DNA of 64,000 nucleotides from Candidatus Culexmicrobium cathedralense (GCA_025061115.1 JANZKC010000004.1:135171-199170), one strand, 5' to 3'; shown: positions 169 through 37,708, numbered from the stretch's first letter. The notes: generated by a model not told the origin, from the letters alone. Made by a program: numbers and translations.

Positions 169-717
169 TTACAGATCCATTTTATCCAAAACTTCTCTAA
201 ACCTAACTATTAGCGTGGGGGAGATCCAAAATCCATCTTCAACCATTTTATTCAGCAACTTCCAAGCCTCCTCCCCTCCCAACAACCCCTCCCTAACGCC
301 CCTCAACAACAAATATAAAACTCCCCTCGGCGTCAAGCCAAAAAGCTTAGCTACGCGGTAAGCCAACTCATCATTCGTAAGTAAAATCTCCGCACTCAGA
401 TCCAGTGCAAGCGCTATAGCCTCCCTCTCACCAGCCCCAAGCCTAATCTTCAACCTTTCCTCAACACCCCTCACCCTCTCAATAGAACCCTCAGAAGCAT
501 CCCTCACCTCAATCCAGCCATCAGCAACAGCTCCACCAATAACCCTAGAATCCGGAAATCCCTTCAATGAACCTCTCTCAACAGCCTCAACATAAACCGA
601 CCTAGGAATACATATCACGCCATAGAGAGCTCTAAGAATATCCAGCCTACCGTACCTCGCCAACCAAATCAACGGCCCAGTATCAGAGACAACCCCCAAC
701 ACCCAAAAACTCCCCAA
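169..717 (-). CDS. PIN-domain toxin, DUF3368-like (VapC-type)
   Basis: N-terminal VVSDTGPLI, GEREAIALA and LLTND acidic PIN motifs; overlaps upstream small antitoxin gene. Confidence 0.85.
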   Translation of the reverse strand: MGSFWVLGVVSDTGPLIWLARYGRLDILRALYGVICIPRSVYVEAVERGSLKGFPDSRVIGGAVADGWIEVRDASEGSIERVRGVEERLKIRLGAGEREAIALALDLSAEILLTNDELAYRVAKLFGLTPRGVLYLLLRGVREGLLGGEEAWKLLNKMVEDGFWISPTLIVRFREVLDKMDL

Positions 718-1009
718 CCTCCTCTAAAAACCTCTCATCACCATACCTCAAAACAACACCCCTACGCTTAAGCTCACCAAAAAACTCCCAATAACTCAAA
801 CCAGAAACCTCAACAGCCCTACCAATCGAAATCAAACCCCTAGAATACAAATCCAAAGCCAACCTCACCCTAAGCTCCCTAACACCAAACCTAATAGCAT
901 CACGCAAAACATCAGAACGATCCCTACCCAAAGCCCCAGCCAAAAAATCCAACTCCTCAAGCAACTCCACAGGCAAACGAACAGTAGTCACCTTAAACAA
1001 AACAAACAC
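683..1009 (-). CDS. UPF0175-family antitoxin with N-terminal ribbon-helix-helix
   Basis: VTTVRLP..DRSDVLRDAI (RHH) followed by ALDLYSRGLISIGRAVEVSGLSYWEF (UPF0175 pattern); paired with DUF3368 PIN. Confidence 0.85.
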   Translation of the reverse strand: MFVLFKVTTVRLPVELLEELDFLAGALGRDRSDVLRDAIRFGVRELRVRLALDLYSRGLISIGRAVEVSGLSYWEFFGELKRRGVVLRYGDERFLEEVGEFLGVGGCL

Positions 1010-4497: not shown

Positions 4498-5391
4498 TTA
4501 TCTATATTTCATGAGAACTCTTGCATTGTAAATTGAAAGCCAGTATTTCATCTTGCTAAAGTCTTTTGCTGAAAGGATTTCATTGATTGCCCTTTCAAGT
4601 ATTGGATCTCCTAAAGATATCTTAAGTAATTTATGATATCCAAGCTTACTAATCTTGCATCTCCTAATGTTGTCTTTGGTGAGATAATATATTTCTCTTA
4701 AATATGCGGCACGTATATGACTACTTGTGTCTAAGCTATCCACTATGTTTTTTAAGTAGTTTAACATAGATGGGCTTAAGACTCCAAGTAGATGCAATTT
4801 GGTCTTGCGTCCAATTTCATGTCTAATCGATTTGACTATTTTCTTAATTTGGTTTAATTTTCCTTCTTTAATGAGAGGTACAAGTGAACCTATGGCTATA
4901 TAGTTGGAACCCATTTCTGCAAGTTTTCGCGCTGAATAAGTATAGCTTTCTACATTCCATCCGTGAGCTACGGTAATTACTTCAACTCCGAGCTTATCAG
5001 CGAGCTTTAGATAGACTTCTGCTAGATCTAAATTTCTTTGCAAAATTTTTTGCTTAGCTTCCTGAGAAAGCTGTTTATTGACTAATGGGTGATCTTTCTG
5101 GATGATATAATCTGCACCTAGCCCGACTTGAATGTTAAATATGACGTTGATAGGTATAGCTTTATTTTCATGGCTCCAAAGAGAAGAAATTAATGAATCG
5201 ACAATTAATTTACCTCGATAATTAAAGCATGTTTTAAATCCTTTACTGATCAGATGATCCATATGGCGCTTAGAGTTCATTATATTGCCTAAACTAATTA
5301 GAATTCCATCAACTTCCATGTACTTCCAATATGGCGGGTCTTGAGGGTTTAATCTCCATGTTAGGTAGATTTTCAAGCGATTTCTCCTCAC
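4498..5391 (-). CDS. divergent tRNA/DNA-guanine transglycosylase (TGT)-fold protein
   Basis: Ordered TGT-barrel motifs IVDS, GADYIIQKDHP, VAHG, IAIGSL, HLLGV, DSLDTSS; no CxCxxC zinc site. Confidence 0.75.
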   Translation of the reverse strand: MRRNRLKIYLTWRLNPQDPPYWKYMEVDGILISLGNIMNSKRHMDHLISKGFKTCFNYRGKLIVDSLISSLWSHENKAIPINVIFNIQVGLGADYIIQKDHPLVNKQLSQEAKQKILQRNLDLAEVYLKLADKLGVEVITVAHGWNVESYTYSARKLAEMGSNYIAIGSLVPLIKEGKLNQIKKIVKSIRHEIGRKTKLHLLGVLSPSMLNYLKNIVDSLDTSSHIRAAYLREIYYLTKDNIRRCKISKLGYHKLLKISLGDPILERAINEILSAKDFSKMKYWLSIYNARVLMKYR

Positions 5392-6320
5392 GCATAGAGG
5401 GATATTGCCTTTATAGCTTCTTCTGGATCTATTTTTCCATTTCTGAGATAGATTTCATCATAGATTATTGCTGTTAACCTTAGAATTTCACCGGGATTAC
5501 CATTAGTATAATCATATAATCTATCAACGACACTTTCTGGAAGGAAGCTTGCAACCTCGGGTAGATATATTCTAAGGAATTCGAGGACTTCATTTTTTGT
5601 TAAATTTCTTAAGTATATTAGCATCGCTGAAAGGCGTCTAGACAAGGCCATGTTTATCGAGACAATTTCATCCCAGCCAGCTGGTGTAGAGGCAACTAGC
5701 ATGAATAGATTATAAGAAGCGTCATCAATTAATCTTCTAAGAGCATTCATGTATGATAACCGCTTGTACTTTTTCAGCTCCAATATTGTTTCAAATTCAT
5801 CGAGCAAAATCAAAATCAACTTATCACCTTCAAGAATTAATTGAGTTAGCATCTCCAAGGATGTCCAAACATCTAAATTCCTTGTTAAACCAAGCTTTCT
5901 ACGAATCTTAGCATCAAGCTTCTCTCCCAATAACCATAAGTAATAGAAGTATTCGTAGGTTTCAGAGGAATCAGCGGGTGTAATGGCTATCTTGTCATTG
6001 ATTACTCTTAATGCTATCTCCTTATACATTCGATTTTTAAGTAACTTTCTCATCACCGCATTGTAGAGGTCTAGGAAGCTTCTACCAGGAGATGAAACGT
6101 AAATTGGAAGGACCTTTTTTGATGATGAATATACGTGCTCTAAATGCTTAAGAAAATGCGTTTTACCAAAGCCATAGCTTCCAATTATAGCTCCTGCGCC
6201 GGAAAACCTTCTTCGCTGAGATTTTTCAATATAGCTTCTTATGCGCTCAACATTTCCATCGGGATCAAACATTTTATCAAAGAAGCGAGGAATTGCAAGA
6301 CGATTAAGCATAATCACCAC
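5388..6320 (-). CDS. AAA+/P-loop ATPase
   Basis: Walker A GSYGFGKT, Walker B ILLDEFE, arginine finger ALSRRL, TNGNPG helical-lid motif. Confidence 0.85.
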   Translation of the reverse strand: MVIMLNRLAIPRFFDKMFDPDGNVERIRSYIEKSQRRRFSGAGAIIGSYGFGKTHFLKHLEHVYSSSKKVLPIYVSSPGRSFLDLYNAVMRKLLKNRMYKEIALRVINDKIAITPADSSETYEYFYYLWLLGEKLDAKIRRKLGLTRNLDVWTSLEMLTQLILEGDKLILILLDEFETILELKKYKRLSYMNALRRLIDDASYNLFMLVASTPAGWDEIVSINMALSRRLSAMLIYLRNLTKNEVLEFLRIYLPEVASFLPESVVDRLYDYTNGNPGEILRLTAIIYDEIYLRNGKIDPEEAIKAISLYA

Positions 6321-6967
6321 TTCCCACTTTTGATGAAGATATACACGTATTTGCGACCCCTAACGCTAACTGCTCTACTAGAATTTTTGTCAAAGAGAGG
6401 TGCGGGAGCTAGGATCACGTTCTCTCGATTTTCATCAACAAATTTAGCAAGAAGCTCCTCGAAAACTTTTGAGCTCAAATTAAGCTCCTTAATAATGCAC
6501 TTTCTTACCTCTACAATAGGCACGTACTTAGACCGCATATTTCTTGAAATCTTCCTGTAAGTCTCAATTATTTTGTCCATAAAAAGCGAGTAAATTTCTC
6601 TTTGCTTAGCTGGTGAAAGATAAAGTACTTCATTCAGCAGCCTAAGCGAAATATCCACAACTAACGCATTAAGACCCGTCTCTTCAGCTATACTTTTAAT
6701 AGTCGTAAATCCACCAAAGTATGCATTTGCAACTCTCTCATACTCCGGCAGCCTCAAGAGATACTTATGTAAAATGTCTCCCCGCTTCTCACTATATGCT
6801 TCCAAAAAGATCTTGCCATCCTCAGTTATGGAGTAGCTTTCTCCATTATACGTTGCAAGCTCCATTTTTAACAAGGTATGAATCGCTTCAGAAGATCCAC
6901 TATAGGCTTTACCAGCAGCAATATTGCTTAATGTCCTTATCAAGGACTTAATGGTAACTGGTCTCAA
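6314..6967 (-). CDS. multi-winged-helix DNA-binding protein (putative)
   Basis: YSITEDG wing, TIKSIAEETGL HTH, C-terminal VPIVEVRK..LNLSSKVFEELL wHTH-like segment; overlaps the ATPase gene. Confidence 0.55.
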   Translation of the reverse strand: MRPVTIKSLIRTLSNIAAGKAYSGSSEAIHTLLKMELATYNGESYSITEDGKIFLEAYSEKRGDILHKYLLRLPEYERVANAYFGGFTTIKSIAEETGLNALVVDISLRLLNEVLYLSPAKQREIYSLFMDKIIETYRKISRNMRSKYVPIVEVRKCIIKELNLSSKVFEELLAKFVDENRENVILAPAPLFDKNSSRAVSVRGRKYVYIFIKSGKW

Positions 6968-7220: not shown

Positions 7221-9104
7221 TTATTGTGTGGACTTTTTAAAGCCGATCCAATTGAGTAAAGTTGGATTTTTAGCTTTGAAATGTAAATTAAGCATATCAA
7301 AGATGTGCTTAATGAGTAAAGTTTGATTTCTAACGCCCTTCACGGGGAACACTGTTGCCCTTATGTCGTGGTTATGATATGCCTTAGTAATTGGCGCTAC
7401 TATCACAGCTCGATCATCCATAAGCAACTTATTAACAGCTTCCTCAGCAGCCAGCAAATAGGCTTTGCTTAGATTAACGATGATTAAATCATAGTCGTCT
7501 TTAACGTAACTGAGAATTTTTTCCTCCACATTGTGCTTTGAAGCCCATTTTCTAATCCAATCACTAGACTTTCCGCTGAATGTTGCATCATACGGTATAA
7601 TGCGATCTTGCCCATGAATAACGCCATATCGAGCTGATATAAAAACTACATCAACTTTCACACCTTTGCTCCTAAGCTTATTAACACCTCTCTTAACAAC
7701 TCTAAAATTGCCAGCATACATATCTTCAGCCTTCAAAATAAATTCGCTAAGCAATTTTCTGTAAAGACCTTCGTTCTCAATATCAAATTTAGGCTTACTT
7801 AGACCATAACTTCTCAATTTTTCGTCAATTTTTCTCCACTCAACATTTTTCTGAGCCGTGCAATTGGTTATCACAAGAATGTTCTTCAGCTTTGTTGGAA
7901 TCCAAGGATTCAAGTCTAACAATTTTGTCAAATCTAGCTTTAAGTGCCTGCTTTTAGCTATTCTAAAGTTGACAAGTTTTTTCTCCTTCAAAAAATTACT
8001 AAACACCCACACATTATGGAAGCCTCTTCTCCTATTTCGATCATTACCTCTAAATATTACCACGTCAATTCCGATTTCACGACAAATTTTGCACTTGCAC
8101 TTTTTCCAAGGCCTATTAATTAATAATTCATAGTAGTATGGCAGGTAGTCTACTCCCCCATTAAGATAGACGTACTCTTCGACGAGCCGCCACAACTCCC
8201 TAAAATTCATCGCGCCTTCGTCATACCTATGAAGCGCATCGAGCAACTCCTTTTCAAGTTTACTTTCTTTCCACACACGAATCGCAGTATAGGCTTTGCC
8301 ATCCAAAGTAATGTAATTGCTAAAATGTCTAAGCCAAGCAATTCGAAGAACAGTCGAACTGTCAAATGACACCGTCTCAGCTATGCTGCCCTCCAATTCT
8401 TGAAACAGCGGAATAAGCTTAAGTCGAGCAACTCCTAGAAAATGAAGTCTCCTAAGCTTAACACCATGCAACTCTCCACGGAGCTTTTTTATAAGTTTCT
8501 TAATGAAAACCGAACTGCGCCTAGCTAAACCTCCAAGAGCAAAACTGTCAAATCCTTTACTGTAAAGTGCCTTGACAAACTTCACATAATCATTTGAATT
8601 AATGCCCTGCACTGCTGCCAACAACAAAAACTTTTCCTTGAAATTCCTCCTCCACTCATCAAGCATCTTCAAAGCATTCTCATAAGTAATACGCATCCTC
8701 CACAACTGATCCTCAGCACTCGTGCCAAGAATAGCTATATGATCAACAGTAACACCAAGATCAACACCAATTCTTGAATAAAACGTCAACATCTCAACGG
8801 GATCATATGGCGGGGTTATTTGACGGACATACTGCCAAGCACCGCAATCGCCCATAACCTCAGCATGCCCAGGTAATCTTAAAAAACTCTTAACGCCAAG
8901 CTCTTCAACACGCCTAACAATATGCTTAAGCTCCAAAACACTACGAGAGACCAGCACGCCCTCAAAGGGAATTTCGCCAAGAATGTGCCAAAGCCTAGCA
9001 CCAAACCTAAATTTATCCTCTATAAAGCCATCAGAGTGACGTTCTTCCTTAAAATCAAAACCACCATCAACGATATCATGCCAATCGGGGAGTAGATATT
9101 TCAT
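7221..9104 (-). CDS. dpdA: DpdA-type 7-deazaguanine DNA transglycosylase fused to a C-terminal YaaA/DUF6884 (DpdC-like) domain
   Basis: MKYLLPDWHDIVD..FDF N-terminus, GDCGAW, VDHI, AVQG, ALGGL, HFLG, SFDSS and PWKKCKCKIC..IFRGNDRNRRRGFHN DpdA signature; C-terminal ITNCTAQK / AEDMYAG / ISARYG / PYDATF. Confidence 0.85.
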   Translation of the reverse strand: MKYLLPDWHDIVDGGFDFKEERHSDGFIEDKFRFGARLWHILGEIPFEGVLVSRSVLELKHIVRRVEELGVKSFLRLPGHAEVMGDCGAWQYVRQITPPYDPVEMLTFYSRIGVDLGVTVDHIAILGTSAEDQLWRMRITYENALKMLDEWRRNFKEKFLLLAAVQGINSNDYVKFVKALYSKGFDSFALGGLARRSSVFIKKLIKKLRGELHGVKLRRLHFLGVARLKLIPLFQELEGSIAETVSFDSSTVLRIAWLRHFSNYITLDGKAYTAIRVWKESKLEKELLDALHRYDEGAMNFRELWRLVEEYVYLNGGVDYLPYYYELLINRPWKKCKCKICREIGIDVVIFRGNDRNRRRGFHNVWVFSNFLKEKKLVNFRIAKSRHLKLDLTKLLDLNPWIPTKLKNILVITNCTAQKNVEWRKIDEKLRSYGLSKPKFDIENEGLYRKLLSEFILKAEDMYAGNFRVVKRGVNKLRSKGVKVDVVFISARYGVIHGQDRIIPYDATFSGKSSDWIRKWASKHNVEEKILSYVKDDYDLIIVNLSKAYLLAAEEAVNKLLMDDRAVIVAPITKAYHNHDIRATVFPVKGVRNQTLLIKHIFDMLNLHFKAKNPTLLNWIGFKKSTQ

Positions 9105-9522: not shown

Positions 9523-12500
9523 ATGAAACTCATCTTGAGTTTCAATGAAATATCCAGACTGGGAAAACATTCATGGAAAAATTTGACTGATGAGCATAAA
9601 AAATTAAGTGAAGATTTAATAATCAGCATAAAGGACTATCTTGAAAATAAAAAGAAAAGACATTATGCTCATGTTATTGTTGCACCCTATGGATCAGGAA
9701 AATCAACATTATTAGACTACTTGGCATATTACACTTGGAAAGAGCTTAAACGGCCTGCAATAATAGCTAATATGAACAGGATCTTAGAGTACATAAATAA
9801 TAAGTATAAAAAGGAAACTAAAGGTAAGCTACCCGAAGATAAGCTACCTGATATATTGGAGGAATTTTTCAAAGATTCATTGATTATGCTAAAAAATATA
9901 ATACTTCATGAAAACAATGTGCCGTTACCATTACGCTCAATTATTCCATTAAATGACATAATTTCAATAATTGATACTTTTCTTCAGAAAAATATAAGAG
10001 GATTACTATTAATAGATGAAGTTGAAGAGGCATTAAAGCAATTAAAAAATACAATAAATTACGTCACAAGCCCCTTTAGAGGATTATTTGATGCAATATA
10101 CAATACTACATCAAAAATTTATGTAGTGATCGCTTTTGGACCTCAAAGCGTATTAATGGAAGACATTCTAGGCTTATCCTCTGGATGGCGTAATGTAGTT
10201 AAAAGCATACCTTTATCCTCTCCTAGTATGATTTTTAATGAACTTCAAAGGCTTCTTCCCAACGAAGAAAAGAAAATCTTAAGACTTCTTTCAAATACTT
10301 TATGGTGGATAAGTAAAGGAGGACGGCCCGGATGGGTTTATAACTTTATAGAACAAAGTTTTCCAAGAAAGGTTATTCATTGTTTAAAAAATTTTAATGA
10401 AAAAAAGGAGCTAATTTACGATGATGAGTTACTAAAAGCTCTCAAGAAAGAAGTTGTTAAGGGTATACCCTGCTTTTCAGAATACGACTATATGAATATA
10501 CTTAACTTCTTGCCAAGCGATAGCTATATAGAAAGAAATCTCTTTAAAGTACTACTCGTCTTGATAGGTCCCCTGAGTGAAAATGATATTAGGAGTTTAG
10601 GAATAAATTACGACCGCTGCATTAAATTAAACCCCAAGATATTTGTCGTAGGAGATAAATTGATTCCTTATGATGCTTTCATCACGGCGGTTAGAAGAGA
10701 TCTAGAGAAAGTTGCTAAAAGTCGAAAAGCACTCGATTATAGAGATGGCAAAATTATTGAAAGAGCCATAAACCTTCTTGCCTTAGTTTTTAGTGCTTGG
10801 TCAGCCTTTGTCAATAAAATCCCCATGATATTAGATGAGAGAGATGCGTGGCAAGAACTTAAAGACATAGCAGCTGACTTAAGTCGAGAAATGTATGATA
10901 CAGAAACAGCCCGCCTAATAGAAAATTTTGAAATTCGTTGGCTTAAAATACCAAAAGAAGCCTATACTCCCGATGGTATAGTCTATGTAGCAATGCATCC
11001 AAGAATTATTGAAAATATTTACCCTCCAATATTTTCTATCCCTCTAATAGGTAAAGCGCGTCTAGATGGAATAGATGAAGTATACCCGTTTCTACGAGAT
11101 CAAGATTTAGAATATCTATCTGAATTAGCACAACAGCTTTTTGGCATTTTAGCTCACATCTTAAGCAATCAGAAAAATCAAGTTAAAGATGTTGCTGAAA
11201 AATATCTACTGGTGCCAATTATAGACGGAAGTAATTTGAATAAAATAAAAGAGTACATATTTAACAGTAAACTTAATGGAAAACATCCAATTTTAATTCC
11301 ACTAAGTCCATCAGGTGAAAAACTGAAAAAAACAATAGACCTACTTAAGAAGGAACTTAAAAGTTTTGATGAATTGCAAATAACTACAATATTAGAAAGA
11401 ATTAGTCCTCGTATGTCCATTTTTGTATTAGGCATTCTTTATGATATTGCTCATCAGGGCAAAAATGAAATATTATATACAGAGAGTGAAGAGGGATTAG
11501 CGAGAATAGAAAGAAGAATATTAGAGTCATATTCACGACAACTACTATTAATACTTTATGAAGCCATAATGGAAACAAAACGTGCCATAAGTTTGCAAGA
11601 ACTATTACCTGATTATGTTTTAGAGCTTTGTAAGAAACTTGATGAGCAGGCTCATAGTAAGTTAGGATCAAAAAGAGCAGAAGACCTTTGGTGCGTTCTT
11701 GCATCTCAAAAGACTATTGAAATATACGAAAAAATAATTGAATGTTTGAATGAAATTAATCATTTGACATCGGACCTTGTTGAGATTATTTATCCCGATG
11801 AAAGAGAGATCATTAAGGGCTTGCTAGTTAAAAAAGGCGCCTTAGATTATGTGAGGGATGCAAAAAGTTTATTTGAAAAATTATCTAAATGCTTAAGAGA
11901 TAATAACACATTTAATATGCTAAAATTAATATTAGAAGATGTTTTGAATCAAGAAAAATACATAGATTCTTTATTTAACAGAATTCAACATTCACTAAAA
12001 GAAATCTTTAAAGAAATTGAATATAAGAGTGTTTGGTACGCATTAACGTCATATTTGACTCATATGCTGGCAGATCAATGCTCAAATCCTTATATTAAAG
12101 GATTAAATGGAAAAGACTTGCAATTTGAAAAATCCAAGCTTAAAATTAAGTTAGGTAAATTGAAAGATAAACTTAATATTAATAAGCTTAAAGAACTTGC
12201 TAACTTAATGGAAAATTACCATTTGCCACAATTCATAGAAATGTTAAGAGAAAGACTTGAAAAATTTGAGAAAGTGTTAAACAAACTAAAATCTTTAATA
12301 GAAGATCTTAAACCAACAAATATCTATGAAAAATGGACTTATACTGTTGCTTTTATTAAAAAAGAAGCTGAAAGAAGTTTTATGGAGAACATAACAACTA
12401 TACTTGAAAACCTTGATAGTAAACTTTTGGGTAGCTATGCTAGTTATTTAACTCAAATTAGCGATATCTTTACGAAGACAATCCCAGATTTAAAAAGTAG

Positions 12501-12720
12501 AATCTATAATATTAGCGAAAGTGGAGAACCGGTTCTCAATGAAGATTTGAAAACAATACTCAAAAGAAATTCAAATCTTAAGAGTTTGCGTGATCAACTT
12601 CAAAATTATATAACTCAATTACAAGGCGCGCTAAATGACCTAGGCAGGTACCCCATTAAACATGACTTCAAGAAACTGCTCACTCTCCTTGATGAGATAA
12701 ACGAGATGATGATGGTATGA
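9523..12720 (+). CDS. large P-loop ATPase with helical/coiled-coil C-terminus (DpdH-like)
   Basis: Walker A APYGSGKST, Walker B LLLIDEVEE, GGRPG motif; ~1065 aa; first gene of the helicase-PLD operon. Confidence 0.7.
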   Translation: MKLILSFNEISRLGKHSWKNLTDEHKKLSEDLIISIKDYLENKKKRHYAHVIVAPYGSGKSTLLDYLAYYTWKELKRPAIIANMNRILEYINNKYKKETKGKLPEDKLPDILEEFFKDSLIMLKNIILHENNVPLPLRSIIPLNDIISIIDTFLQKNIRGLLLIDEVEEALKQLKNTINYVTSPFRGLFDAIYNTTSKIYVVIAFGPQSVLMEDILGLSSGWRNVVKSIPLSSPSMIFNELQRLLPNEEKKILRLLSNTLWWISKGGRPGWVYNFIEQSFPRKVIHCLKNFNEKKELIYDDELLKALKKEVVKGIPCFSEYDYMNILNFLPSDSYIERNLFKVLLVLIGPLSENDIRSLGINYDRCIKLNPKIFVVGDKLIPYDAFITAVRRDLEKVAKSRKALDYRDGKIIERAINLLALVFSAWSAFVNKIPMILDERDAWQELKDIAADLSREMYDTETARLIENFEIRWLKIPKEAYTPDGIVYVAMHPRIIENIYPPIFSIPLIGKARLDGIDEVYPFLRDQDLEYLSELAQQLFGILAHILSNQKNQVKDVAEKYLLVPIIDGSNLNKIKEYIFNSKLNGKHPILIPLSPSGEKLKKTIDLLKKELKSFDELQITTILERISPRMSIFVLGILYDIAHQGKNEILYTESEEGLARIERRILESYSRQLLLILYEAIMETKRAISLQELLPDYVLELCKKLDEQAHSKLGSKRAEDLWCVLASQKTIEIYEKIIECLNEINHLTSDLVEIIYPDEREIIKGLLVKKGALDYVRDAKSLFEKLSKCLRDNNTFNMLKLILEDVLNQEKYIDSLFNRIQHSLKEIFKEIEYKSVWYALTSYLTHMLADQCSNPYIKGLNGKDLQFEKSKLKIKLGKLKDKLNINKLKELANLMENYHLPQFIEMLRERLEKFEKVLNKLKSLIEDLKPTNIYEKWTYTVAFIKKEAERSFMENITTILENLDSKLLGSYASYLTQISDIFTKTIPDLKSRIYNISESGEPVLNEDLKTILKRNSNLKSLRDQLQNYITQLQGALNDLGRYPIKHDFKKLLTLLDEINEMMMV

Positions 12721-13961
12721 TAAAAGGAAAAGCAATTGATTTCCTTAAAAAAATAAGTAATGAAAGACGTGAAATTGAACAACACTTAAAAGAGTCATTA
12801 GAATATGCAGAAAAAATTAAAGAAATTATAGAAAATTATCCTGATTTTTGCAACCATATCCGAAGACCATCTAAGCCGAAAGGGTTATGTCTAGATGAAA
12901 TAAAGCAATGTAAGAATGAACTACAAGAAATTTATATTGAGCTAATTGCTACAGCTGTCTTGAATAGTTTAAATATGGATTTTATTACTAAATCATCACT
13001 TATAGGCATAGTCCAACCTATAGCTGAAGAAATCCATGAAGGAGTCTTGTCTTTTAAAAACCTAATAATGCCAAAAGAATTTGGTATAGCTTTGTCAGAA
13101 GCTATATCGAGCTACGATCCTAATGTTGTACGTTCTGTTATCAAAAGCCTTTATACCGAGGATTTAGAAAATATTATGAAAATTAATGATGTAATTTCTA
13201 AGGTGAAGAAGAATGCAATTACATTTTACGGTAAAGATCATGCGAAAGAAATAGAAGAATTGTTGCTTAACTTGTTAAAACATTATGTGAGAAAGATTTT
13301 TGATAAAGAGGTAACTGTAAAAATAATGCTCGATGAAATAAAAGAACTTCAAGAACTAATACATGAAGCATATGTTATGACAACAAATTGTAATGCTATT
13401 TCTATACCTCGAACTAATGTATTAAAGAATTATATGATTAGGGCCTTCGCAACAACAATATGTGATTATCTGAATAAACTTATTAAGACGTGTCATCAGT
13501 TACAAGAATTGCCTAAACAAAGTAAATGTACTAAATGGAAAGAAAATATTGAAAAAACATTAAAAAATATTAAGCTTCTTATTAGTGAAATTGAAGATGA
13601 AAAATATTCTAAATTATTTAAAATACAAAAAATAATAAATAAATTAGATATATCTAATAACATTAAAAATAATATCGCTTCCTTAATACAAAAAATGTTA
13701 CAAAAAAATGGGCATTTAAATGAAAAACTTTGGTTAGAACTTGATGAAAAGTTAAACAATATTTTTAGAGGAACGATAAATGACGAACAACAAATATTAC
13801 TTAATGTAATTTTTTCAATGTTAACTGATGAAAAACGTGAGATGACTATTATAGAAATAATTGAACATGCCACGAAGAAAGTGGCTAATAAGGATAAGAT
13901 GCTTAAAGCGTTGTATGAGCTTTGTGAAAAAGGCTTGGTAGAGTGTTTTGTAAGGGTGTAG
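12717..13961 (+). CDS. helical/coiled-coil protein with possible C-terminal wHTH (in the DpdI position)
   Basis: ATGA overlap with the ATPase; C-terminal MTIIEII..LKALYELCEKGLVE wHTH-like pattern. Confidence 0.55.
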   Translation: MIKGKAIDFLKKISNERREIEQHLKESLEYAEKIKEIIENYPDFCNHIRRPSKPKGLCLDEIKQCKNELQEIYIELIATAVLNSLNMDFITKSSLIGIVQPIAEEIHEGVLSFKNLIMPKEFGIALSEAISSYDPNVVRSVIKSLYTEDLENIMKINDVISKVKKNAITFYGKDHAKEIEELLLNLLKHYVRKIFDKEVTVKIMLDEIKELQELIHEAYVMTTNCNAISIPRTNVLKNYMIRAFATTICDYLNKLIKTCHQLQELPKQSKCTKWKENIEKTLKNIKLLISEIEDEKYSKLFKIQKIINKLDISNNIKNNIASLIQKMLQKNGHLNEKLWLELDEKLNNIFRGTINDEQQILLNVIFSMLTDEKREMTIIEIIEHATKKVANKDKMLKALYELCEKGLVECFVRV

Positions 13962-13965
13962 ATTC

Positions 13966-16593
13966 ATGCCTCTTCCCGTTCCCCCTAAAAATATTGTAGA
14001 AATATTTACCACTAATGGTCGTAGTGAGGATTTTGCTAAAAGATACGTTGCTAATGCTATTTTATCATTAATTGAAGAAAAAGAACAGCAACATATACAA
14101 AACCTGGATTATGATGCTTGGGTAAAACTTTCTTATAAAGATATATGCGAGAAGATTATAGAATATGTGAACCATTTTGCTCGTGCAATTAATTCAAGGG
14201 GTTTGTCGTATGATGATGTAAACCATTCTGAACTATCTGAATATATAGCATGTGTTCTTTACACATTTGCGTCAGAAGGTATTTATGAGGCGCATCATAG
14301 CCGCTACATAATAATAAGGGGTGAATATGATGTTAATGCAATTAAGGATAAATTGACGAATAGCTTTCTAGAGGTCAGAAGTAGGTTTATTGAAATCGCA
14401 CGTAACCTTGTGAAAGTAAAACAAAGATTTTGGAATACATCGATATATGAGGCAAAACCATTGATAGATAGAGTTTTTGCATACGTTGAACCAAGGTTTT
14501 TACCTATTGATGTTGTTGATATATATCAAATTTTGGATGCCCTGGCTGAGAGAGTTAAAGTATTATATGAGGTTTTTTGTGGGAAGTTACGTAAAGAAGA
14601 GAATTCTCAAACAAAGGATTTCCTTGGGGAAGTTGTAAAAAATTTTCTTCAAAAAGTTATAAAATTTAGGCTTTACGAATATCAGGTGCGAGGATTAATA
14701 CAAATTTTAAATAACGTTAAAGATTGCATCGATAAATGCGTGGAAAGAGCAGTAGTATTACAAGCACCAACAGGTTCCGGAAAAACTGAAGCTTTCGTTT
14801 TGTCGATTATTCTTGCTTCTCTTGCGTATAAAGCCGCTTTAGATTGGGATAATAAATCACCTGCTGCGCTCATTATTTACCCGCGTAGAGCTTTAGCAAC
14901 AGATCAACTGAAACGACTAATTACTTATTTATTCCATATCAATAATGTACTTAAAGATGTTGGTAATAGGAGAAAACAAAAGTATGCCAAGTTAAGGCTT
15001 TCAATTAATTATACTGAAATAAGACCTATGAGAGAATATGAGGCTTTAGCAAAAAAGGTTCAACAAGAGAAGCCTAGAGAGTGGAAAGAATATAAAATGA
15101 ATTACATAAAGGTATTGTCGAAATATAGCAATGAAGGTGAAGTTTTAGTAAAATTGCCATTTCTGTGGCTACCTGAAAGTGATGAAAATCCCTGTATTGT
15201 AGTCTCATCAGACAGTTACATATGGTATAACCAGGACATGGATTTTGTTACAGTAACTAAAGAAGATGTTTATGAAAAACCAGGCGACATTCATGTAACC
15301 CTATTTGAGACCTTGAGAAATAACTTAAGAAATAAAAGAGCACATCCTATTTTTGGTTTTCCTTATGAGTATGGTCCCTTTATAATTGTATTAGATGAAG
15401 TGCATACTTATATAGGCATAACAGGCGCAAGATACGCGTATCTTCTCGATAGATTATTAATGGTTATTAAATGCCGTACCAATCGCCATACAAGAGGTGT
15501 TTTGTTTGTATGTGTAAGTGCTACTGTACCTAATCCTGAAAACTTTATAAAAAAATTATTAGCTGTAAAAGAATTTGCCATAGTGTCTCCGAGAGAAGCA
15601 GAGACTATCCCCCTTGGGAACGAATATTTCTACGTAATAATTCCTACGACCAAATATCTTGTAAACCACTTAGCAGTTTCTATACAAGCTGCTATGGTTC
15701 TGCATTTCAATATACCTGCATTAATTGAAGAAAAAGGAAAGAAAAAGAAGAGTTTTATCTTTTCGGACAACCTTGACGTCATCGAAAGATTTCGAAGAGA
15801 CTTTGGAGATGCCATTAATAGAAAATTGCAAGATCTCAGAAATCCCCTAGATCCTGCTTTTTACGATAAGACGATTAAGGAGTTTGGTGATGGACTATGT
15901 TGGAAAGAAGCACTTGATAAACCGTGGTTACTAGAATACCTTAAGTCGTGGAAAGAGGGTGAATATTGGTGGCCGTATGCATTGGAGAAAAAAGAGGGAT
16001 TAACATTTGACAAATTATCAAAATATACGGGACCTGAAAAAGGAGATGTAAAAGAGAGTGATATTGTCGTTGCAGATTCTGCGCTGGAGTTAGGGGTGGA
16101 TTATAGGGATGTTGTCGTAATATATCAACACGGCATTCCATTAAGTATTGCTTCATTAATACAAAGAGCCGGACGTTCAGGTAGAATTGTGCGAGACAAC
16201 CCCCTTGTAAGGGTGGCTGTAGCAGTAATGTTATCTCCATACATCCCTTCACAGGCAGCTCTATTCCAACTTCTTATTAGAAGCGAATCATTAAGGAATG
16301 TTCTTGAATATGAAAGTTTGAATATACCTGTTGGCAATAAGAAATTAATAGCTCAAACTATAGTGGAAAGTATTTTAGATTATATGTCGTTAAAACCCCA
16401 ACACTTAATGAGGTTTGAAGATATCGAAAAAAGATTACTTACATTCTTAAATAAAGAGGGGCGCTCCATTGTTCAATATATTAAAGATATGTTGAGGAGG
16501 CGTGCGGTTATGCTAAAACTCGAGATAGATGATGTGATAAAAAGCACATTAGATACATTAATCGAAGAACTGAAAGATGCTTGGGAGGCTTAA
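13966..16593 (+). CDS. SF2 DEAD/DEAH-box helicase (DpdJ N-terminal part / DrmA-like)
   Basis: Q motif LYEYQ, APTGSGKTE, IYPRRALATDQ, LDEVH, SAT, ALELGVD, QRAGRSGR. Confidence 0.9.
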   Translation: MPLPVPPKNIVEIFTTNGRSEDFAKRYVANAILSLIEEKEQQHIQNLDYDAWVKLSYKDICEKIIEYVNHFARAINSRGLSYDDVNHSELSEYIACVLYTFASEGIYEAHHSRYIIIRGEYDVNAIKDKLTNSFLEVRSRFIEIARNLVKVKQRFWNTSIYEAKPLIDRVFAYVEPRFLPIDVVDIYQILDALAERVKVLYEVFCGKLRKEENSQTKDFLGEVVKNFLQKVIKFRLYEYQVRGLIQILNNVKDCIDKCVERAVVLQAPTGSGKTEAFVLSIILASLAYKAALDWDNKSPAALIIYPRRALATDQLKRLITYLFHINNVLKDVGNRRKQKYAKLRLSINYTEIRPMREYEALAKKVQQEKPREWKEYKMNYIKVLSKYSNEGEVLVKLPFLWLPESDENPCIVVSSDSYIWYNQDMDFVTVTKEDVYEKPGDIHVTLFETLRNNLRNKRAHPIFGFPYEYGPFIIVLDEVHTYIGITGARYAYLLDRLLMVIKCRTNRHTRGVLFVCVSATVPNPENFIKKLLAVKEFAIVSPREAETIPLGNEYFYVIIPTTKYLVNHLAVSIQAAMVLHFNIPALIEEKGKKKKSFIFSDNLDVIERFRRDFGDAINRKLQDLRNPLDPAFYDKTIKEFGDGLCWKEALDKPWLLEYLKSWKEGEYWWPYALEKKEGLTFDKLSKYTGPEKGDVKESDIVVADSALELGVDYRDVVVIYQHGIPLSIASLIQRAGRSGRIVRDNPLVRVAVAVMLSPYIPSQAALFQLLIRSESLRNVLEYESLNIPVGNKKLIAQTIVESILDYMSLKPQHLMRFEDIEKRLLTFLNKEGRSIVQYIKDMLRRRAVMLKLEIDDVIKSTLDTLIEELKDAWEA

Positions 16594-18911
16594 AATTGTT
16601 CAAATTAAGTCATACAAAGGTCTTATGCAGATATCTCCCTCCTACTCTATTTATGGAAACAAATCTACCTGCCGTTAAAATTAAAATGGGGAAAAAGAAC
16701 GTGAGGAGTGAAGATATTGAACTATCTTTATCAACATATTTACCAGGAAAAGTAAGCTTTAGATGCGTTCCTGGTCTCATAGTACCTATTTATAAATCTC
16801 GTAAACGCAGGAAAAATAAACTTGTAATTATCACCGATAAGGTATATGAGCTTAGAAGCCCACTGTTAAGCTCTCATGAAAAAGAAAAAATTAGAGAAGA
16901 ATTGCCATTTTCTTTTAAGGTTTATCTAAATACGTTTGGGCTTCCATGGAAAGTAGACTTTTATAGGCTTGGCGGTGTTAATGCTCAGCCTTTTCTTTGG
17001 AATAACGGCTATCACTGGATGTTGTGGTTGACGAAAGAGCATATGATGTCAATAGTTTTTGAAAAGAAAGATATTGAGAACATTCTCAAAAGATATAGAA
17101 TCAAAAACATATACTTTCTAACAGAAAGATCAACTGTTTATCCGCTATTTAATTTGACAGTACTTAAATCTCTTGAAAAAACAGCTAATACTTTGCAATC
17201 TATCGCTAAAAGGCTGGGTTTCAATTTTATTGAAAGTGACGTGAGTTATTACTCAGCTGATATATTTAAGTATCTTTACGCTTTAAATTTAGAACTTGAA
17301 GTTCGCGCTGTCAGATCCTCTCAATATAATAACTCTTGTTCTCTACCCCAGCTTAGAAAAGTTACAAGGTTTAAACGAAAAATCATAGGTACAAGGATAC
17401 TTGCTAGGGATGAAGATATGTTGTCTCCTATATTGTTAGGATTTAAAATTGAAGATACCCCTTTATTGAAGTTAACTCCCGATGTTGAAGAGTTTATAGA
17501 GTATTTTTTAAAGAAAGGCTCGCAATTAATAATTCAAGATTCTTTATCGGGTTATACGAAATATGCTATAATAATGGACTTGACTATAAATCAACTTTTA
17601 GGAGATATAGGTTGCCATAAATTGCTTACCAATTTAAATCATGTTTTTTCGTATTTTGATATTTTCTGCAACGAACCAATACTTGATATTATTGAAAATG
17701 GAGATAATCTGTTTCACTACCTTCTGTGGTTTGACGAAAAACTAAGTGAAACAAGTAAATGCCCTGCAGATCTTTTGATATTTAAAGAGATAATTGGCGA
17801 ACGTTTATCGTCTTGTAACTTTTTATCAAAGATAAAAAAGATAAATCAAAGTATTAAAGAGAAAATCGAGAACAGACTAAAGGAAATTTCAAGTCAAGTT
17901 AAAGAAGCTAAATTTAATATACTAATGTCAATTCTTAATCATACTTTTAGTCACCATTTTCTTAAGGCTATAACTTTTAGAAGTAGTGTCAACAGCAGAT
18001 ACCTCGGAGAAATTTATCATTCATACTTTACCCATCCCAATTCTGGGAAATATAAATCGTTTTATATATATGAAATATCATCAGGAGGCGTTGGAGCCCT
18101 TGAATCTGTTGTAAATACTTGGCAAACAGATAAACAGAGTTTCATTATTGATGTCTTATTGCAAGCAGGGTCGTGTATTATAGGTATGCCTGAAGATTTG
18201 GTCTATAATATGCTACTTAAGAATTATAAGCCGCCTTCATCGATTGATGAGGCGAGATGTTATGTTATACAGGGACTCAAAGACGTAGATCTTCTAATAA
18301 CGCCTGAGGAGTGTGAAGAAGCTGCGAGATTATCGTTTAGTATAACCAAGGAATTTGATATGAGAGGTTGGGACATTGCTAAAGAGGTTGCTTACTGTAG
18401 AAGGGCGCTTGAAGATAAAATTAAAAGAACTGCCTTATCTCATGAAATATGCATTAATGTTCTTAAGAACCTTAGCTCTTGTAAGAATTGCAAAGAAGTG
18501 CTTGAAGAAATCATTCAAAGGACAAGTGAAGCACAGGGTTGGAATGTTGACGTAGAAATTCTAGATGAAATAAGAGAGGCTCTTTTCAATGTAGAAAACA
18601 AATTAGTCGAAAAAATAAGGAAAGGTGATAAAAGCATGAGAAAAATTGTAAGAGAAATTGGAAGGATACTAGAGGCGGCTTTACTGAGATTTGTTCTTAC
18701 ATCATGTCCAACAGCTTGCGGTTGGTGCTATATTAACTCTAGTGGATGTAGTGAAAGCTCAGCACCATGGCTTCAAGCATTGACTCTAAATAGGAGATTG
18801 TTAAAACACTATGCTACATGGACATTAAAGAGGGTTAGAGATAAGAGAAATGAAGGTCTAACCTTAGCTTCAGTAAAAATTGGAGGAGACGTAATAAAAG
18901 TAATAGGGTAG
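16581..18911 (+). CDS. DUF1998-like protein (DpdJ C-terminal part / DrmB-like)
   Basis: HTFSHHFLKAI, YIYEISSGGVGAL and C-terminal CPTACGWC..C zinc cluster typical of DUF1998. Confidence 0.75.
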   Translation: MGGLKLFKLSHTKVLCRYLPPTLFMETNLPAVKIKMGKKNVRSEDIELSLSTYLPGKVSFRCVPGLIVPIYKSRKRRKNKLVIITDKVYELRSPLLSSHEKEKIREELPFSFKVYLNTFGLPWKVDFYRLGGVNAQPFLWNNGYHWMLWLTKEHMMSIVFEKKDIENILKRYRIKNIYFLTERSTVYPLFNLTVLKSLEKTANTLQSIAKRLGFNFIESDVSYYSADIFKYLYALNLELEVRAVRSSQYNNSCSLPQLRKVTRFKRKIIGTRILARDEDMLSPILLGFKIEDTPLLKLTPDVEEFIEYFLKKGSQLIIQDSLSGYTKYAIIMDLTINQLLGDIGCHKLLTNLNHVFSYFDIFCNEPILDIIENGDNLFHYLLWFDEKLSETSKCPADLLIFKEIIGERLSSCNFLSKIKKINQSIKEKIENRLKEISSQVKEAKFNILMSILNHTFSHHFLKAITFRSSVNSRYLGEIYHSYFTHPNSGKYKSFYIYEISSGGVGALESVVNTWQTDKQSFIIDVLLQAGSCIIGMPEDLVYNMLLKNYKPPSSIDEARCYVIQGLKDVDLLITPEECEEAARLSFSITKEFDMRGWDIAKEVAYCRRALEDKIKRTALSHEICINVLKNLSSCKNCKEVLEEIIQRTSEAQGWNVDVEILDEIREALFNVENKLVEKIRKGDKSMRKIVREIGRILEAALLRFVLTSCPTACGWCYINSSGCSESSAPWLQALTLNRRLLKHYATWTLKRVRDKRNEGLTLASVKIGGDVIKVIG

Positions 18912-18915: not shown

Positions 18916-19692
18916 ATGATCATGTTCTTCATTTACAGAACCATTGGATCAAGTAAGATAGAACAAGCGTTTCTTGACCTTTTTTACGAGGAGTTTTTAA
19001 CTGAGGAACATGATGATATCTATATAATCTCACCATGGATAACACCATTTAGTTTCTCTAAAAAAATTGTAGTATACCCATACATAGTTGCTGATAACAT
19101 TGTAGATGTATTGTTAGGGCTAGTAAAGATAGGCGTTAAAGTTAAGATTCTAACGCGTTGTATTGATGATCTGTTACCTCTTGATAAACTGTATTTAGTG
19201 GATCTTATATTACAGTCCGCAGGTGACGAAGTTAATTACAAAGTGCTACGTGAAATTTATGATTATTTGATAAATGATATTAAATGGGCAATAAATCGTA
19301 TGAAAGCGATAATTCTGCTTTCTAAAAGTGGAATAGAAATAAGGTACGATGTAGGTGAAGATCTTTATTCAAATAGACTTCACTCAAAAATGTATGTGGG
19401 AAGTAAAAAAGCTATTATTGGCTCTGCAAATCTGACACAGAGCGGTATTGTTGATAATAGAGGAAATAAAGAATTCATATTAGTAGTTGATAGAGAAGAG
19501 CCTTTATACGAGAAAATACGAGAAGCTGCCATAAAGTATTTCGAACAAGGATATAACTTTGAAAGATGTGAGAAAAGAATTATTAGAACAATAAATCGCA
19601 TACTTACTGAGAAGTTCATAAGCCTCAACGATTTTATGAAATACATGGAAAGAGTTCTAATATCTATCAGTCCAAAAACCAAATACCGTTAA
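18916..19692 (+). CDS. phospholipase D-family nuclease (DpdK/DrmC-like)
   Basis: IYIISPWI, single HxK motif LHSKMYV..AIIGSANLT..G..N.E. Confidence 0.85.
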   Translation: MIMFFIYRTIGSSKIEQAFLDLFYEEFLTEEHDDIYIISPWITPFSFSKKIVVYPYIVADNIVDVLLGLVKIGVKVKILTRCIDDLLPLDKLYLVDLILQSAGDEVNYKVLREIYDYLINDIKWAINRMKAIILLSKSGIEIRYDVGEDLYSNRLHSKMYVGSKKAIIGSANLTQSGIVDNRGNKEFILVVDREEPLYEKIREAAIKYFEQGYNFERCEKRIIRTINRILTEKFISLNDFMKYMERVLISISPKTKYR

Positions 19693-20387: not shown

Positions 20388-20636
20388 TTGGCGGTTGTGA
20401 ATATTGACAGTAGAGGCAGGCTCACCATACCTAGAAAGATGAAGGTGAAAAGCACGAGAGCCATAATAATTCCAGCCGGAAGCTTCTTCATAATAATTCC
20501 CATCCCCCCAAAGCCCATCAACTACGCTAAAAGCTGGTTGAAAACAAGCAAAACCCGACGCGAATTAAAGAAAATGGCAGAAGAACTAGCCAAGAAAGAT
20601 GCAGTCAAGAGAGCCGAGAGGAGGAAGCAGCAATGA
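20388..20636 (+). CDS. vapB: AbrB-like VapB antitoxin
   Basis: IDSRGRLTIP AbrB motif; ATGA-coupled to PIN gene. Confidence 0.8.
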   Translation: MAVVNIDSRGRLTIPRKMKVKSTRAIIIPAGSFFIIIPIPPKPINYAKSWLKTSKTRRELKKMAEELAKKDAVKRAERRKQQ

Positions 20637-21055
20637 TGATCGAAACAGACATCCTCTACGCCTACATTAAACCCAAGGACCGGCTAAAACCCACCGCAGA
20701 AAAATTAATCGAAAAAATAGAGCAAGGCGAACTCGGAGTAATTTACGCTTCAAGAGAAGTACTACACGAACTATATTACATATCCATGCAGGAAGGAATC
20801 TCCCTAAGCGAATTCATAGCAAGAATCTCAGCCATAACGGCCATAAACAACCTAGAATTCATAGAAACAGACCACATAATAGACCTACTAGCCTTCACCC
20901 TAATGCAACAATACAAACTAACATCCCTATTTGACGCCTACTACGCAGCAACAGCACTAAACAAAACCAACGACCACACAATAATCTCAACAGACAACAC
21001 ATTCGACAAAATACCAGGCCTAAAAAGAATAGACCCAAGAGAACTAGTCAAATAA
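20633..21055 (+). CDS. vapC: PIN-domain VapC toxin
   Basis: MIETDILYA, VLHEL, SLFDAYYAATAL, IISTDNTFD. Confidence 0.9.
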   Translation: MMIETDILYAYIKPKDRLKPTAEKLIEKIEQGELGVIYASREVLHELYYISMQEGISLSEFIARISAITAINNLEFIETDHIIDLLAFTLMQQYKLTSLFDAYYAATALNKTNDHTIISTDNTFDKIPGLKRIDPRELVK

Positions 21056-21182
21056 CCCCCCAACAAACTCACCCATAAAAACTACAGACACCACAAACTC
21101 AACACCAAACTAAAACTCCCAATTAATCAAACCAATCTCTACTACCATTCAAGTGTAAGAAACTTAACTGCAACGCCAAGCA

Positions 21183-24825: not shown

Positions 24826-24903
24826 GCCCGGGTGGTGTAGTCAGGCCTAACATACGGGCCTGTCGAGCCCGTGCCCCGGGTTCAAATCCCGGCCCGGGCG
24901 CCA
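24826..24903 (+). tRNA. tRNA-Asp (GUC), intronless, CCA encoded
   Basis: Acceptor stem GCCCGGG/CCCGGGC, anticodon arm CGGGC-CTGTCGA-GCCCG, T-loop GGTTCAAATCC, GCCA end, T-run downstream. Confidence 0.97.
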
Positions 24904-37461: not shown

Positions 37462-37704
37462 TTGGTGATATTGTTGAGTAGGCGTTATGTTACTATTTCT
37501 GTTCCTGAGGATGTTAAGAGGATTTTGGCGAGGGGTAAGGGTAGTGAGGATTGGGGTTCCTTTCTGCTTAGGATTTTTAGGGAGTATGAGCGGCTGCGTA
37601 GGTTGGAGGCTTTTAGGAGGTTAAGGGGCTTATTGTCTGAGGATGATTTGAGGCGGATTGAGGAGTCTGTTGGGGAGTTTAGGAGGAGTTTTAGGTTGGG
37701 GTGA
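37462..37704 (+). CDS. vapB: VapB antitoxin
   Basis: YVTISVPEDV..L RHH-like start; upstream of and overlapping a PIN ORF. Confidence 0.75.
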   Translation: MVILLSRRYVTISVPEDVKRILARGKGSEDWGSFLLRIFREYERLRRLEAFRRLRGLLSEDDLRRIEESVGEFRRSFRLG

Positions 37705-37708
37705 GCTT

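Follow-up and report, generated by a model that had tools for sequence, protein, structure and literature searches.

A DpdA–DUF6884 fusion gene within a putative DNA-modification island of the archaeon Candidatus Culexmicrobium cathedralense

Identification of the fusion gene

Analysis of a 64,000-nucleotide (nt) stretch of the Candidatus Culexmicrobium cathedralense genome (GCA_025061115.1, JANZKC010000004.1:135171–199170; hereafter the window, meaning this stretch at its full length) revealed an open reading frame (ORF), P0001, in which a DNA-guanine transglycosylase domain of the DpdA family is joined to a DpdC-like domain of the DUF6884 family. The ORF is the complement of positions 7221–9104 and encodes a protein of 627 amino acids (aa). 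It forms a single uninterrupted frame of 627 codons, with its stop codon at positions 7221–7223, and is open on the minus strand only; the plus-strand reading of the same region contains many stops. The initial annotation had placed the gene at these positions without naming a strand; the location was borne out, and the strand to be added is the minus strand.

The predicted protein consists of (i) the DpdA domain (residues 1–375; positions 7980–9104, minus strand), supported by the NCBIfam model NF041059 and by alignment with the solved chain 7ui4_A, (ii) a linker of variable length (residues ~376–404; 7893–7979, minus strand), recognizable in the alignment by gaps and low conservation, and (iii) the DUF6884-family, DpdC-like domain (residues 405–627; 7224–7892, minus strand), supported by Pfam, PADLOC, hhalign, AlphaFold2 (AF2) and Foldseek. 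All the motifs listed in the initial annotation were found in the translation of P0001. The N-terminal part contains GDCGAW (residues 85–90), SFDSS (246–250) and CKCKIC (336–341), together with the DpdA-type C-terminal segment FRGNDRNRRRGFHN (351–364), and the C-terminal part contains CTAQK (415–419), AEDMYAG (459–465), ISARYG (489–494) and PYD (504–506).

The N-terminal DpdA domain

Judged from its profile matches, the N-terminal domain is a member of the DpdA family, as had been proposed. The whole protein scored 269.9 bits against the NCBIfam DpdA equivalog NF041059 (curated cut-off 200; E 3.3e-80) and matched the PADLOC DpdA models with an E value of 7.1e-75; its score against the NCBIfam arcTGT equivalog was 31.6 bits (cut-off 350). 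The sole strong solved relative was the DNA-guanine transglycosylase of Salmonella Montevideo (7ui4_A, E 8e-49). Equivalent positions were read from the residue-by-residue alignment with this chain, whose numbering is the native one plus 20, and the roles of the residues in Salmonella DpdA were taken from PMC10164549.

In this alignment, D86 takes the place of the general acid/base D95 and D248 that of the nucleophile D256, while G191/G192 and L223 correspond to G206/G207 and L236, respectively. At the base-recognition positions, D121 is the counterpart of D130, and Q166 stands where Salmonella has H181. The zinc site (CxCxxC...H) is formed by C336, C338, C341 and H363, which are invariant in the alignment of seven fused sequences. 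The same holds for the catalytic and motif residues, with the exception of D121, conserved in six of the seven sequences and lacking only in the truncated representative P0012.

Salmonella Montevideo DpdA (7UI4; family NF041059) and the window protein thus have in common the TIM-barrel transglycosylase core, in which D95, D130, D256, G206/G207, L236, the zinc site and the FRG..RNRRRGFHN segment are all kept. However, the window protein carries an additional C-terminal domain of ~220 residues and has Gln (Q166) in place of H181; moreover, it is encoded in an island without a DpdB partner, and its host is a Thermoproteota-like archaeon and not a bacterium.

The C-terminal DpdC-like domain

The C-terminal part had been described as a YaaA/DUF6884-type domain related to DpdC, and the comparisons made here agree with this description. 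Four core motifs can be distinguished: C415-x3-K419, A459-E-D-M-Y-A-G465, S490-A-R-Y-G494 and P504-Y505. The best Pfam family for the domain was DUF6884 (PF21818), and PADLOC DpdC models matched residues 407–528 (E 5e-10; best score 37.3 bits, profile positions 5–120 of 312).

For comparison, a canonical DpdC was taken from a classical dpd island of the Enterobacter cloacae plasmid NZ_CP086409.1, annotated with dpdA, dpdB, dpdD, dpdK and dpdJ, in which its gene lies directly upstream of dpdA. The profile of the 115-member family of the window domain aligned with this protein over 168 columns (hhalign probability 98.4%, E 7.4e-15). Its motifs CTNGK, AEDLYKG, LSAGLG and VPYKATF correspond to CTAQK, AEDMYAG, ISARYG and IPYDATF of the window domain, CTNGK being found when the natural frame is followed beyond the annotated start. 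As annotated, the dpdC of this locus (L006, 7971–8096) begins so late that ~36 profile positions, including CxxxK, are omitted; since the motif occurs in the same frame a short distance upstream, the publicly annotated gene appears to be N-terminally short. An IS5-family transposase is located ~0.5 kb upstream of the same dpdC.

The canonical DpdC matched only DUF6884 in Pfam (23.2 bits), with no match to PF03883, in agreement with the GATOR-GC preprint, in which dpdC is filed under DUF6884; older texts assign DpdC to DUF328 (PMC5699537). This protein scored 470.5 bits on the PADLOC DpdC model (positions 37–318 of 319), compared with 37 bits for the window domain, which did not match the DpdC profiles over their full length. 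The two proteins share homology over ~170 columns, with the CxxxK, AE-D-x-Y-x-G, S-A-x-x-G and P-Y motifs, and both are encoded together with dpdA. In contrast to the canonical DpdC (~300–320 residues, free-standing), the window domain has ~220 residues, lacks the C-terminal part and is fused to DpdA.

In the 115-row family alignment, the motif residues were conserved in the following numbers of filled rows: C415 in 88 of 109, K419 in 97 of 110, S490 and G494 each in 113 of 114, P504 in 109 of 114 and Y505 in 111 of 114. Position 492 is occupied by Arg in the window domain and in 47/114 family members, and by Gly in 60/114 and in the canonical DpdC. An exhaustive search with residues 401–627 among 1.84 billion representatives identified 413 proteins at E ≤ 1e-3. 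Since standalone relatives of 200–235 aa align with the C-terminal domain from end to end, a whole gene product, and not a fragment, has been fused on.

The AF2 model of the domain is of high confidence, with a predicted local distance difference test score (pLDDT) of 92.2 and a predicted template modelling score (pTM) of 0.89. In a Foldseek search of the PDB, the only match at E ≤ 0.001 was E. coli YaaA (5caj_A; E 3.4e-4, probability 0.99), whereas the best matches among viral models were phage proteins named DUF6884 or YaaA (template modelling score, TM, 0.42–0.60). The Pfam YaaA model (PF03883) gave 12.2 bits with the C-terminal domain alone (E 0.13; cut-off 29.6), i.e. no family match, and the likeness to E. 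coli YaaA (5CAJ; PF03883/DUF328) is confined to the superfamily level. No solved structure of DpdC was found. The window domain also resembles the members of Pfam DUF6884, which include YfjM of Bacillus subtilis: the CxxxK and LSAxxG motifs named for the family in PMC11701544 are present, and phage DUF6884 proteins are its best structural matches. YfjM differs in being linked to DNA-lesion recognition and not to 7-deazaguanine. The same paper states that DUF6884 occurs "in combination with other domains". Taken together, we assign the C-terminal domain to the YaaA/DUF6884 superfamily, as a true but non-orthologous relative of DpdC.

Distribution of the fusion in archaea and bacteria

The occurrence of both parts in one chain, as claimed by the initial annotation, was confirmed by other sequences of the same two-domain architecture. 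The library representatives P0003, P0006 and P0012 share 41–49% identity with P0001, and the gene products of three genome loci (L002, L003 and L005) are 43–46% identical over residues 1–561 to 1–620. The fusion is real and recurrent, and not a product of a frameshift or of faulty assembly, which is excluded because the orthologues carry the same architecture.

The best 150 of the 413 relatives of the C-terminal domain, the query included, were classified locally. This analysis revealed 123 standalone proteins, 4 fusions in the order DpdA–DUF6884, 10 in the reverse order (DUF6884–DpdA) and 13 other long forms, two of which carry the first residues of DpdA. When 24 long or close proteins were scanned with the DpdA model, 11 passed the cut-off, 2 matched below it and 11 gave no match. 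A tree was constructed from 144 domains (6 rows were dropped for short coverage), and the query was placed in a supported clade of eight rows, comprising five standalone domains and three fusions of the same order, with no reverse-order fusion. The fusions of either order are placed apart from each other in this tree and therefore represent separate fusion events. A word-index search with residues 400–627, limited to proteins of 344–1098 aa, retrieved only the query itself.

Genome sequences were scanned with an alignment of four fused proteins as the query, which is why only fused or DpdA-like loci were obtained. One hundred stretches were matched and five loci were confirmed, all from Thermoproteota: Pyrodictiaceae, Vulcanisaeta (L002), Caldivirga, Desulfurococcaceae and Thermoproteus sp. 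CP80 (L005); the genome from which the window derives was not among the matches. The full two-domain gene is present in three of the five loci (L002, L003 and L005), and in the remaining two it is cut by contig ends, at residue 465 (L001) and residue 312 (L004).

A tblastn search of plasmids with a reverse-order fusion yielded 32 records, and full-length fusions of this kind, annotated only as "DpdA", were found in cyanobacteria and Paenibacillus. An example is WP_062436786.1, encoded by a plasmid of Picosynechococcus sp. PCC 73109, which combines the same two domains in one chain and whose locus, like the window, includes a second TGT-fold gene (~300 aa) and helicases. These fusions differ from P0001 not only in the domain order, but also in the DpdA part, which resembles the bacterial model far more closely (429 bits), and in their DUF6884 domains, which lie outside the clade of the query.

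Two haloarchaeal plasmids carry related genes. The 967-aa protein WP_247010758.1, encoded by Halorientalis litorea plasmid NZ_CP095485.1, has the DpdA–DUF6884 order (blastp), and its gene precedes those of a TGT paralogue and a BrxD-like ATPase, both homologous to genes of the window. However, this protein, which comes from Halobacteria and not from Thermoproteota, is 340 residues longer and contains large insertions. In Natronococcus sp. CG52 plasmid NZ_CP099393.1 (locus L008, 5403–8307), the DpdA barrel, the DpdA zinc segment and DUF6884 are encoded by three adjacent ORFs, an arrangement that represents either an unfused state or a broken fusion. The public (RefSeq) labels of the fusions are plain "DpdA" or [quoted passage not shown].

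Genetic organization of the island

P0001 is located within a low-GC island spanning ~2–21 kb of the window (GC content ~0.33, compared with ~0.49 around the rpo genes). Seven genes of this island, namely those encoding the fusion, a 217-aa protein, an ATPase, a second TGT-fold protein, both parts of a DpdJ-like protein and a PLD-family nuclease, are conserved between the window and loci L002, L003 and L005 (23–46% identity).

Three of these genes belong to the operon of the fusion gene and lie downstream of it on the minus strand. The 217-aa protein (6314–6967) has no family match, and its orthologues in the three loci are 31–35% identical. Its ESM Atlas feature scores of 0.88 were under the 0.9 threshold for a lead; the structure rows alone, which name double winged helix, HTH_45 and AAA_assoc_C, suggest, as a lead only, a multi-winged-helix DNA-binding protein. 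The second gene (5388–6320) encodes a 310-aa P-loop ATPase of the archaeal ATPase_2/BrxD-like type (Pfam ATPase_2 44.3 bits, BrxC_BrxD 37.5 bits; NCBIfam BrxD E 1.5e-10), with orthologues of 34–36% identity in the same loci; the Halorientalis "BREX system ATP-binding" protein matched it with an E value of 1e-20. The third gene (4498–5391) encodes a 297-aa TGT-fold protein, here called TGT2, with orthologues in L002, L003 and L005. It scored 79.2 bits on the NCBIfam DpdA model (cut-off 200) and 30.8 bits on Pfam TGT, and it keeps the three Asp motifs; the whole zinc-binding segment has been lost, and no CxCxxC is present. The counterparts of TGT2 in the haloarchaeal plasmids differ in keeping the CxCxxC zinc motif (CPCPVC in Halorientalis), and the counterpart on the cyanobacterial plasmid is a protein of ~307 aa.

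A divergent operon occupies the plus strand. It is headed by two variable genes (9523–13961) encoding proteins of 1065 and 414 aa, which gave only sub-threshold Pfam matches and lack conservation across the related loci. The 1065-aa protein shows weak P-loop/ResIII similarity and a single weak blastp match (L003, E 1.6e-16), while for the 414-aa protein no family and no blastp match in the related loci was found. The following gene (13966–16593) encodes an 875-aa DEAD/DEAH helicase corresponding to the N-terminal half of DpdJ, as indicated by NCBIfam (190.3 bits at profile positions 65–694 of 1482; cut-off 800), PADLOC (E 1.4e-58) and a blastp alignment with the canonical DpdJ of the E. cloacae plasmid covering residues 314–684; its orthologues are 34–35% identical. 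The 776-aa product of the next gene (16581–18911), with orthologues of 23–25% identity, is probably the C-terminal half of a split DpdJ: it gave weak DpdJ matches at profile positions 1118–1216 and 783–838, and its residues 1–61 match residues 772–834 of the canonical DpdJ (blastp). The ends of the two ORFs overlap by 13 nt. Since L002, L003 and L005 have the same split, it is a stable arrangement and not a recent break. The last gene (18916–19692) encodes a 258-aa, DpdK-like PLD-family nuclease (Pfam PLDc_2 44.3 bits; NCBIfam DpdK 31.1 bits, cut-off 100; PADLOC DpdK E 6e-09), whose orthologues share 31–32% identity. Both the DpdJ-like and the DpdK-like genes remained below the respective equivalog cut-offs.

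No qualifying homologue of DpdD, DpdE, DpdF, DpdG, DpdH or DpdI was found among the scanned island proteins (NCBIfam, PADLOC). The sole match of this kind was to NF041063 (DpdF; 27.8 bits, cut-off 550) and involves residues 696–740 of the DpdJ-like helicase, i.e. a conserved helicase C-terminal region. Likewise, no QueF, ArcS, Gat-QueC, methyltransferase or formyltransferase was detected in the island (Pfam, NCBIfam, PADLOC). Going by its gene content, the island appears to be a Dpd system in reduced form, with no DpdB.

A 23-nt imperfect direct repeat (21 of 23 bases identical) at positions 781–803 and 21112–21134 brackets the low-GC island; the pair may mark the island ends or be due to chance. 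Rfam and ARAGORN detected only a tRNA-Asp gene (24826–24903), of which no att-like copy was found. Toxin-antitoxin-like pairs are present at both island edges: genes for an RHH/UPF0175 protein and a DUF3368 protein on the left (169–1009, minus strand), and an 82-aa ORF with a PIN-domain protein gene on the right (20388–21055, plus strand). Further PIN genes occur at 32972–33493 and 37658–38068. The region 40818–55691 contains rpoB-rpoA'-rpoA'', ribosomal protein genes and the EF-1alpha gene; the unsplit RpoB, RpoA', RpoA'' and EF-1alpha identify the host as an archaeon. Five paralogous genes of archaellin (archaeal flagellin) are located downstream at 58776–63719 (plus strand), and both regions are ordinary core genome.

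Queuosine-precursor genes in related loci

The link to 7-deazaguanine metabolism comes from the relatives of the island, and not from the window. In Vulcanisaeta, the fusion gene is directly followed by a gene for a queuosine-precursor transporter (76.2 bits, cut-off 50.95), and a transporter of this type is also encoded in the cluster of the Natronococcus plasmid, 3.6 kb downstream. On the Halorientalis plasmid (locus L009, 4616–14388), queC-folE-queE-queD are divergent from the gene of the 967-aa fusion, which is followed by genes for the TGT paralogue (E 3e-8 to TGT2), a 298-aa protein, the BrxD-like ATPase and a winged-helix protein. From its gene content, this cluster looks like a self-contained cassette for the synthesis of preQ0 (7-cyano-7-deazaguanine) and DNA modification. 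Haloarchaeal virus HRTV-29 is reported to encode a DpdA homologue and a separately listed "peroxide stress response protein YaaA", which are not linked to each other in the source (PMC8651126); this YaaA may be a DpdC-like partner.

Predicted complex between the DpdA domain and TGT2

Complex prediction for the DpdA domain (residues 1–385) and TGT2 gave a score of 0.62, compared with 0.01 for the best of three controls. Of 80 solved complexes, 58 attained the mark applied, as did 2 of 110 mismatched pairs; these counts give only a rough calibration because our own shallow alignments were used. Three runs agreed in at least 66% of contacts, with a partner pLDDT of at least 83. The predicted contacts involve residues 94–101, 104, 128–135 and 139 on the DpdA side and residues ~65–67, 102–104, 169–175, 202–204 and 223–230 of TGT2, i.e. 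its face with the TGT motifs. According to these models, TGT2 probably binds the DpdA domain directly. The full-length AF2 model of the fusion, built from seven sequences, had a pLDDT of 73.4 and a pTM of 0.48, and residues 352–404 were below pLDDT 50.

Discussion

[quoted passage not shown] In Salmonella, DpdA and the ATPase DpdB insert preQ0 into DNA, with DpdA being dependent on the ATPase of DpdB, and DpdC converts the resulting preQ0-containing DNA (dPreQ0-DNA) to dADG-DNA independently of DpdA/B (PMC10164549). The premise of the initial annotation, that DpdC is YaaA-like and is needed for this conversion, is in accord with PMC10164549, PMC5699537 and the BREX preprint.

By homology, the DpdA domain would replace a guanine of double-stranded DNA with preQ0, as the free base, through the double-displacement reaction of TGT enzymes, with D248 as the nucleophile, D86 as the general acid/base and a structural zinc site. 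The tethered DpdC-like domain would then flip out the new dPreQ0 and, if it acts like its relative DpdC, hydrate the nitrile to the amide to give dADG. The conservation pattern suggests that Cys415 is probably the nucleophile of this step, aided by Lys419 and the SARYG/PY loop. As no DpdB was found, the BrxD-like ATPase, the winged-helix protein and TGT2 are candidates for ATP-dependent DNA handling, which they would most likely supply as DpdB does in Salmonella, TGT2 probably by direct binding to the DpdA domain. The split DpdJ-like helicase and the DpdK-like PLD nuclease of the divergent operon would attack unmodified DNA. DNA as the substrate, dADG as the product, the roles of the partner proteins and the restriction phenotype are what we infer from these comparisons, as is the coupling of the two domains.

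Several observations weigh against a coupled insertion and hydration of preQ0. As regards the C-terminal domain, its DUF6884 scores are below the Pfam gathering cut-off of 30 (26.5 bits, E 7.8e-06, for the whole protein; 29.0 bits, E 1.4e-06, for the domain alone), with the orthologous fusions P0003 and P0006 reaching 51.5 and 50.8 bits, respectively. The HMMER match to DpdC (37 bits) extends only over the first ~120 of 312–319 profile positions, and the last ~60–100 residues of the canonical protein are missing (hhalign). Because of this partial match and the missing C-terminal part, the domain is best described as a sister subfamily, whose chemistry could differ. The structural resemblance to YaaA that the initial annotation had anticipated was found in so far as 5caj_A was the only PDB match passing the E-value limit, but it is weak (TM 0.39/0.35, root-mean-square deviation 10.8 Å, 14% identity). 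As regards the island, no DpdB was detected among 12 (NCBIfam) or 13 (PADLOC) of its proteins at E ≤ 0.01, and no gene for preQ0 synthesis or transport was present among the window ORFs scanned. In the available portions of the literature searched, no report of 7-deazaguanine in cellular archaeal DNA was found. Moreover, the independence of Salmonella DpdC from DpdA/B means that the mechanism does not demand a fusion, and neither channelling nor a fixed arrangement of the two domains is supported by the full-length model, given its pTM and its low-confidence linker. The predicted DpdA–TGT2 complex, in turn, could in part stem from similarity to TGT dimers of solved structure.

The partial nature of the DpdC match leaves room for an alternative that we consider unlikely, namely that the C-terminal domain is catalytic but belongs to a distinct DUF6884 subfamily, so that it would turn preQ0 carried in DNA, or another inserted 7-deazaguanine, into a derivative other than dADG, or else act on some other flipped-out base. 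The domain corresponds to the core of the DpdC profile without the canonical C-terminal part, and at position 492 it has, like 47 of 114 relatives, Arg in place of the Gly of 60/114 and of the canonical DpdC. In addition, DUF6884 is a broad family that includes YfjM, linked to DNA-lesion recognition and base flipping (PMC11701544), and phages make at least eight 7-deazaguanine derivatives in their DNA (PMC10516641). Nevertheless, all four DpdC core motifs are kept, DpdC alone among DUF6884-type proteins is known to have a reaction demonstrated in a Dpd setting, and no extra tailoring gene was detected in the island.

It is less probable still that the C-terminal domain has no catalytic activity and serves as a DNA-binding or base-flipping module, targeting or aiding the DpdA domain and partly replacing DpdB, with dPreQ0 as the final mark. 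Such a role would suit an island in which no DpdB was found, and some validated dpd islands without dpdC carry only dPreQ0 (GATOR-GC preprint). However, C415, K419, S490, G494, P504 and Y505 are kept at 81–99% in 115 relatives and are shared with the canonical DpdC; because of this Cys/Lys/Ser/Gly/Pro/Tyr conservation, an active site fits better than a binding surface. Furthermore, the DNA could be handled by the separate ATPase and the winged-helix protein that the island already encodes.

An enzyme acting on tRNA and not on DNA, as a variant of the archaeosine pathway, would be in keeping with the archaeal host, since archaea insert preQ0 into tRNA (PMC5699537), and with the weak matches of P0001 to arcTGT models, but it is very improbable. 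The protein falls far short of the arcTGT cut-off (31.6 bits vs 350) while exceeding that of DpdA (269.9 vs 200), and no PUA or C1/C2 domains were found (Pfam, NCBIfam). In addition, the gene lies in a low-GC island beside DpdJ-like helicase and DpdK-like nuclease genes, in an arrangement conserved in four genomes; this neighbourhood and the arcTGT score speak against the tRNA-only activity that the initial annotation had named as a possible refutation. Finally, although the same parts form separate adjacent ORFs in the Natronococcus plasmid (DpdA in two pieces, then DUF6884), a frameshift, misassembly or decaying pseudogene is hardly conceivable in view of the uninterrupted 627-codon frame, the conservation of both domains and of the architecture at 41–49% identity in P0003, P0006, P0012, L002, L003 and L005, and the invariance of the catalytic and motif residues in seven sequences (D121 in six of them).

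Besides the probable role of P0001 in inserting preQ0 and converting it to dADG, a broader proposal may be put forward tentatively: Thermoproteota and Halobacteria would carry a distinct, DpdB-independent 7-deazaguanine system, in which a single-chain DpdA::DpdC-like enzyme is bound to a TGT-fold paralogue, which has lost its zinc site in Thermoproteota, and is served by a BrxD-like ATPase and a winged-helix partner. In the bacterial Dpd system, DpdA and DpdC are known to be two individual proteins, and we found no mention of a DpdA–DpdC or DpdA–DUF6884 fusion, or of this archaeal gene set, in the portions of the literature searched. The fusion itself is an ordinary evolutionary event; what is noteworthy is the recurrent coupling, the helper set without DpdB and the hyperthermophilic setting.

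Current public annotation of the fusions hides their second domain. Since DUF6884 is fused to DpdA in both orders, in two archaeal phyla and in bacteria, the family at large can be tied to 7-deazaguanine DNA modification by a Rosetta-stone argument, and a Pfam domain of unknown function thereby gains a testable one. The archaeal islands are devoid of DpdB, which is indispensable in Salmonella, and contain another conserved helper set; what the ATPase contributes to base exchange within duplex DNA can thereby be tested a second time, in an independent system. A thermostable single chain that both installs and matures the base would suit structural work on DpdC chemistry and might serve as a tool for site-directed DNA base replacement. 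If the proposal is true, TGT2 would be a non-canonical regulatory or targeting subunit that holds a conserved DpdA loop (residues 94–101 and 128–139) with what was once its active-site face, and dADG, or a new 7-deazaguanine derivative, would serve as a self-mark in the chromosomes of hyperthermophilic archaea.

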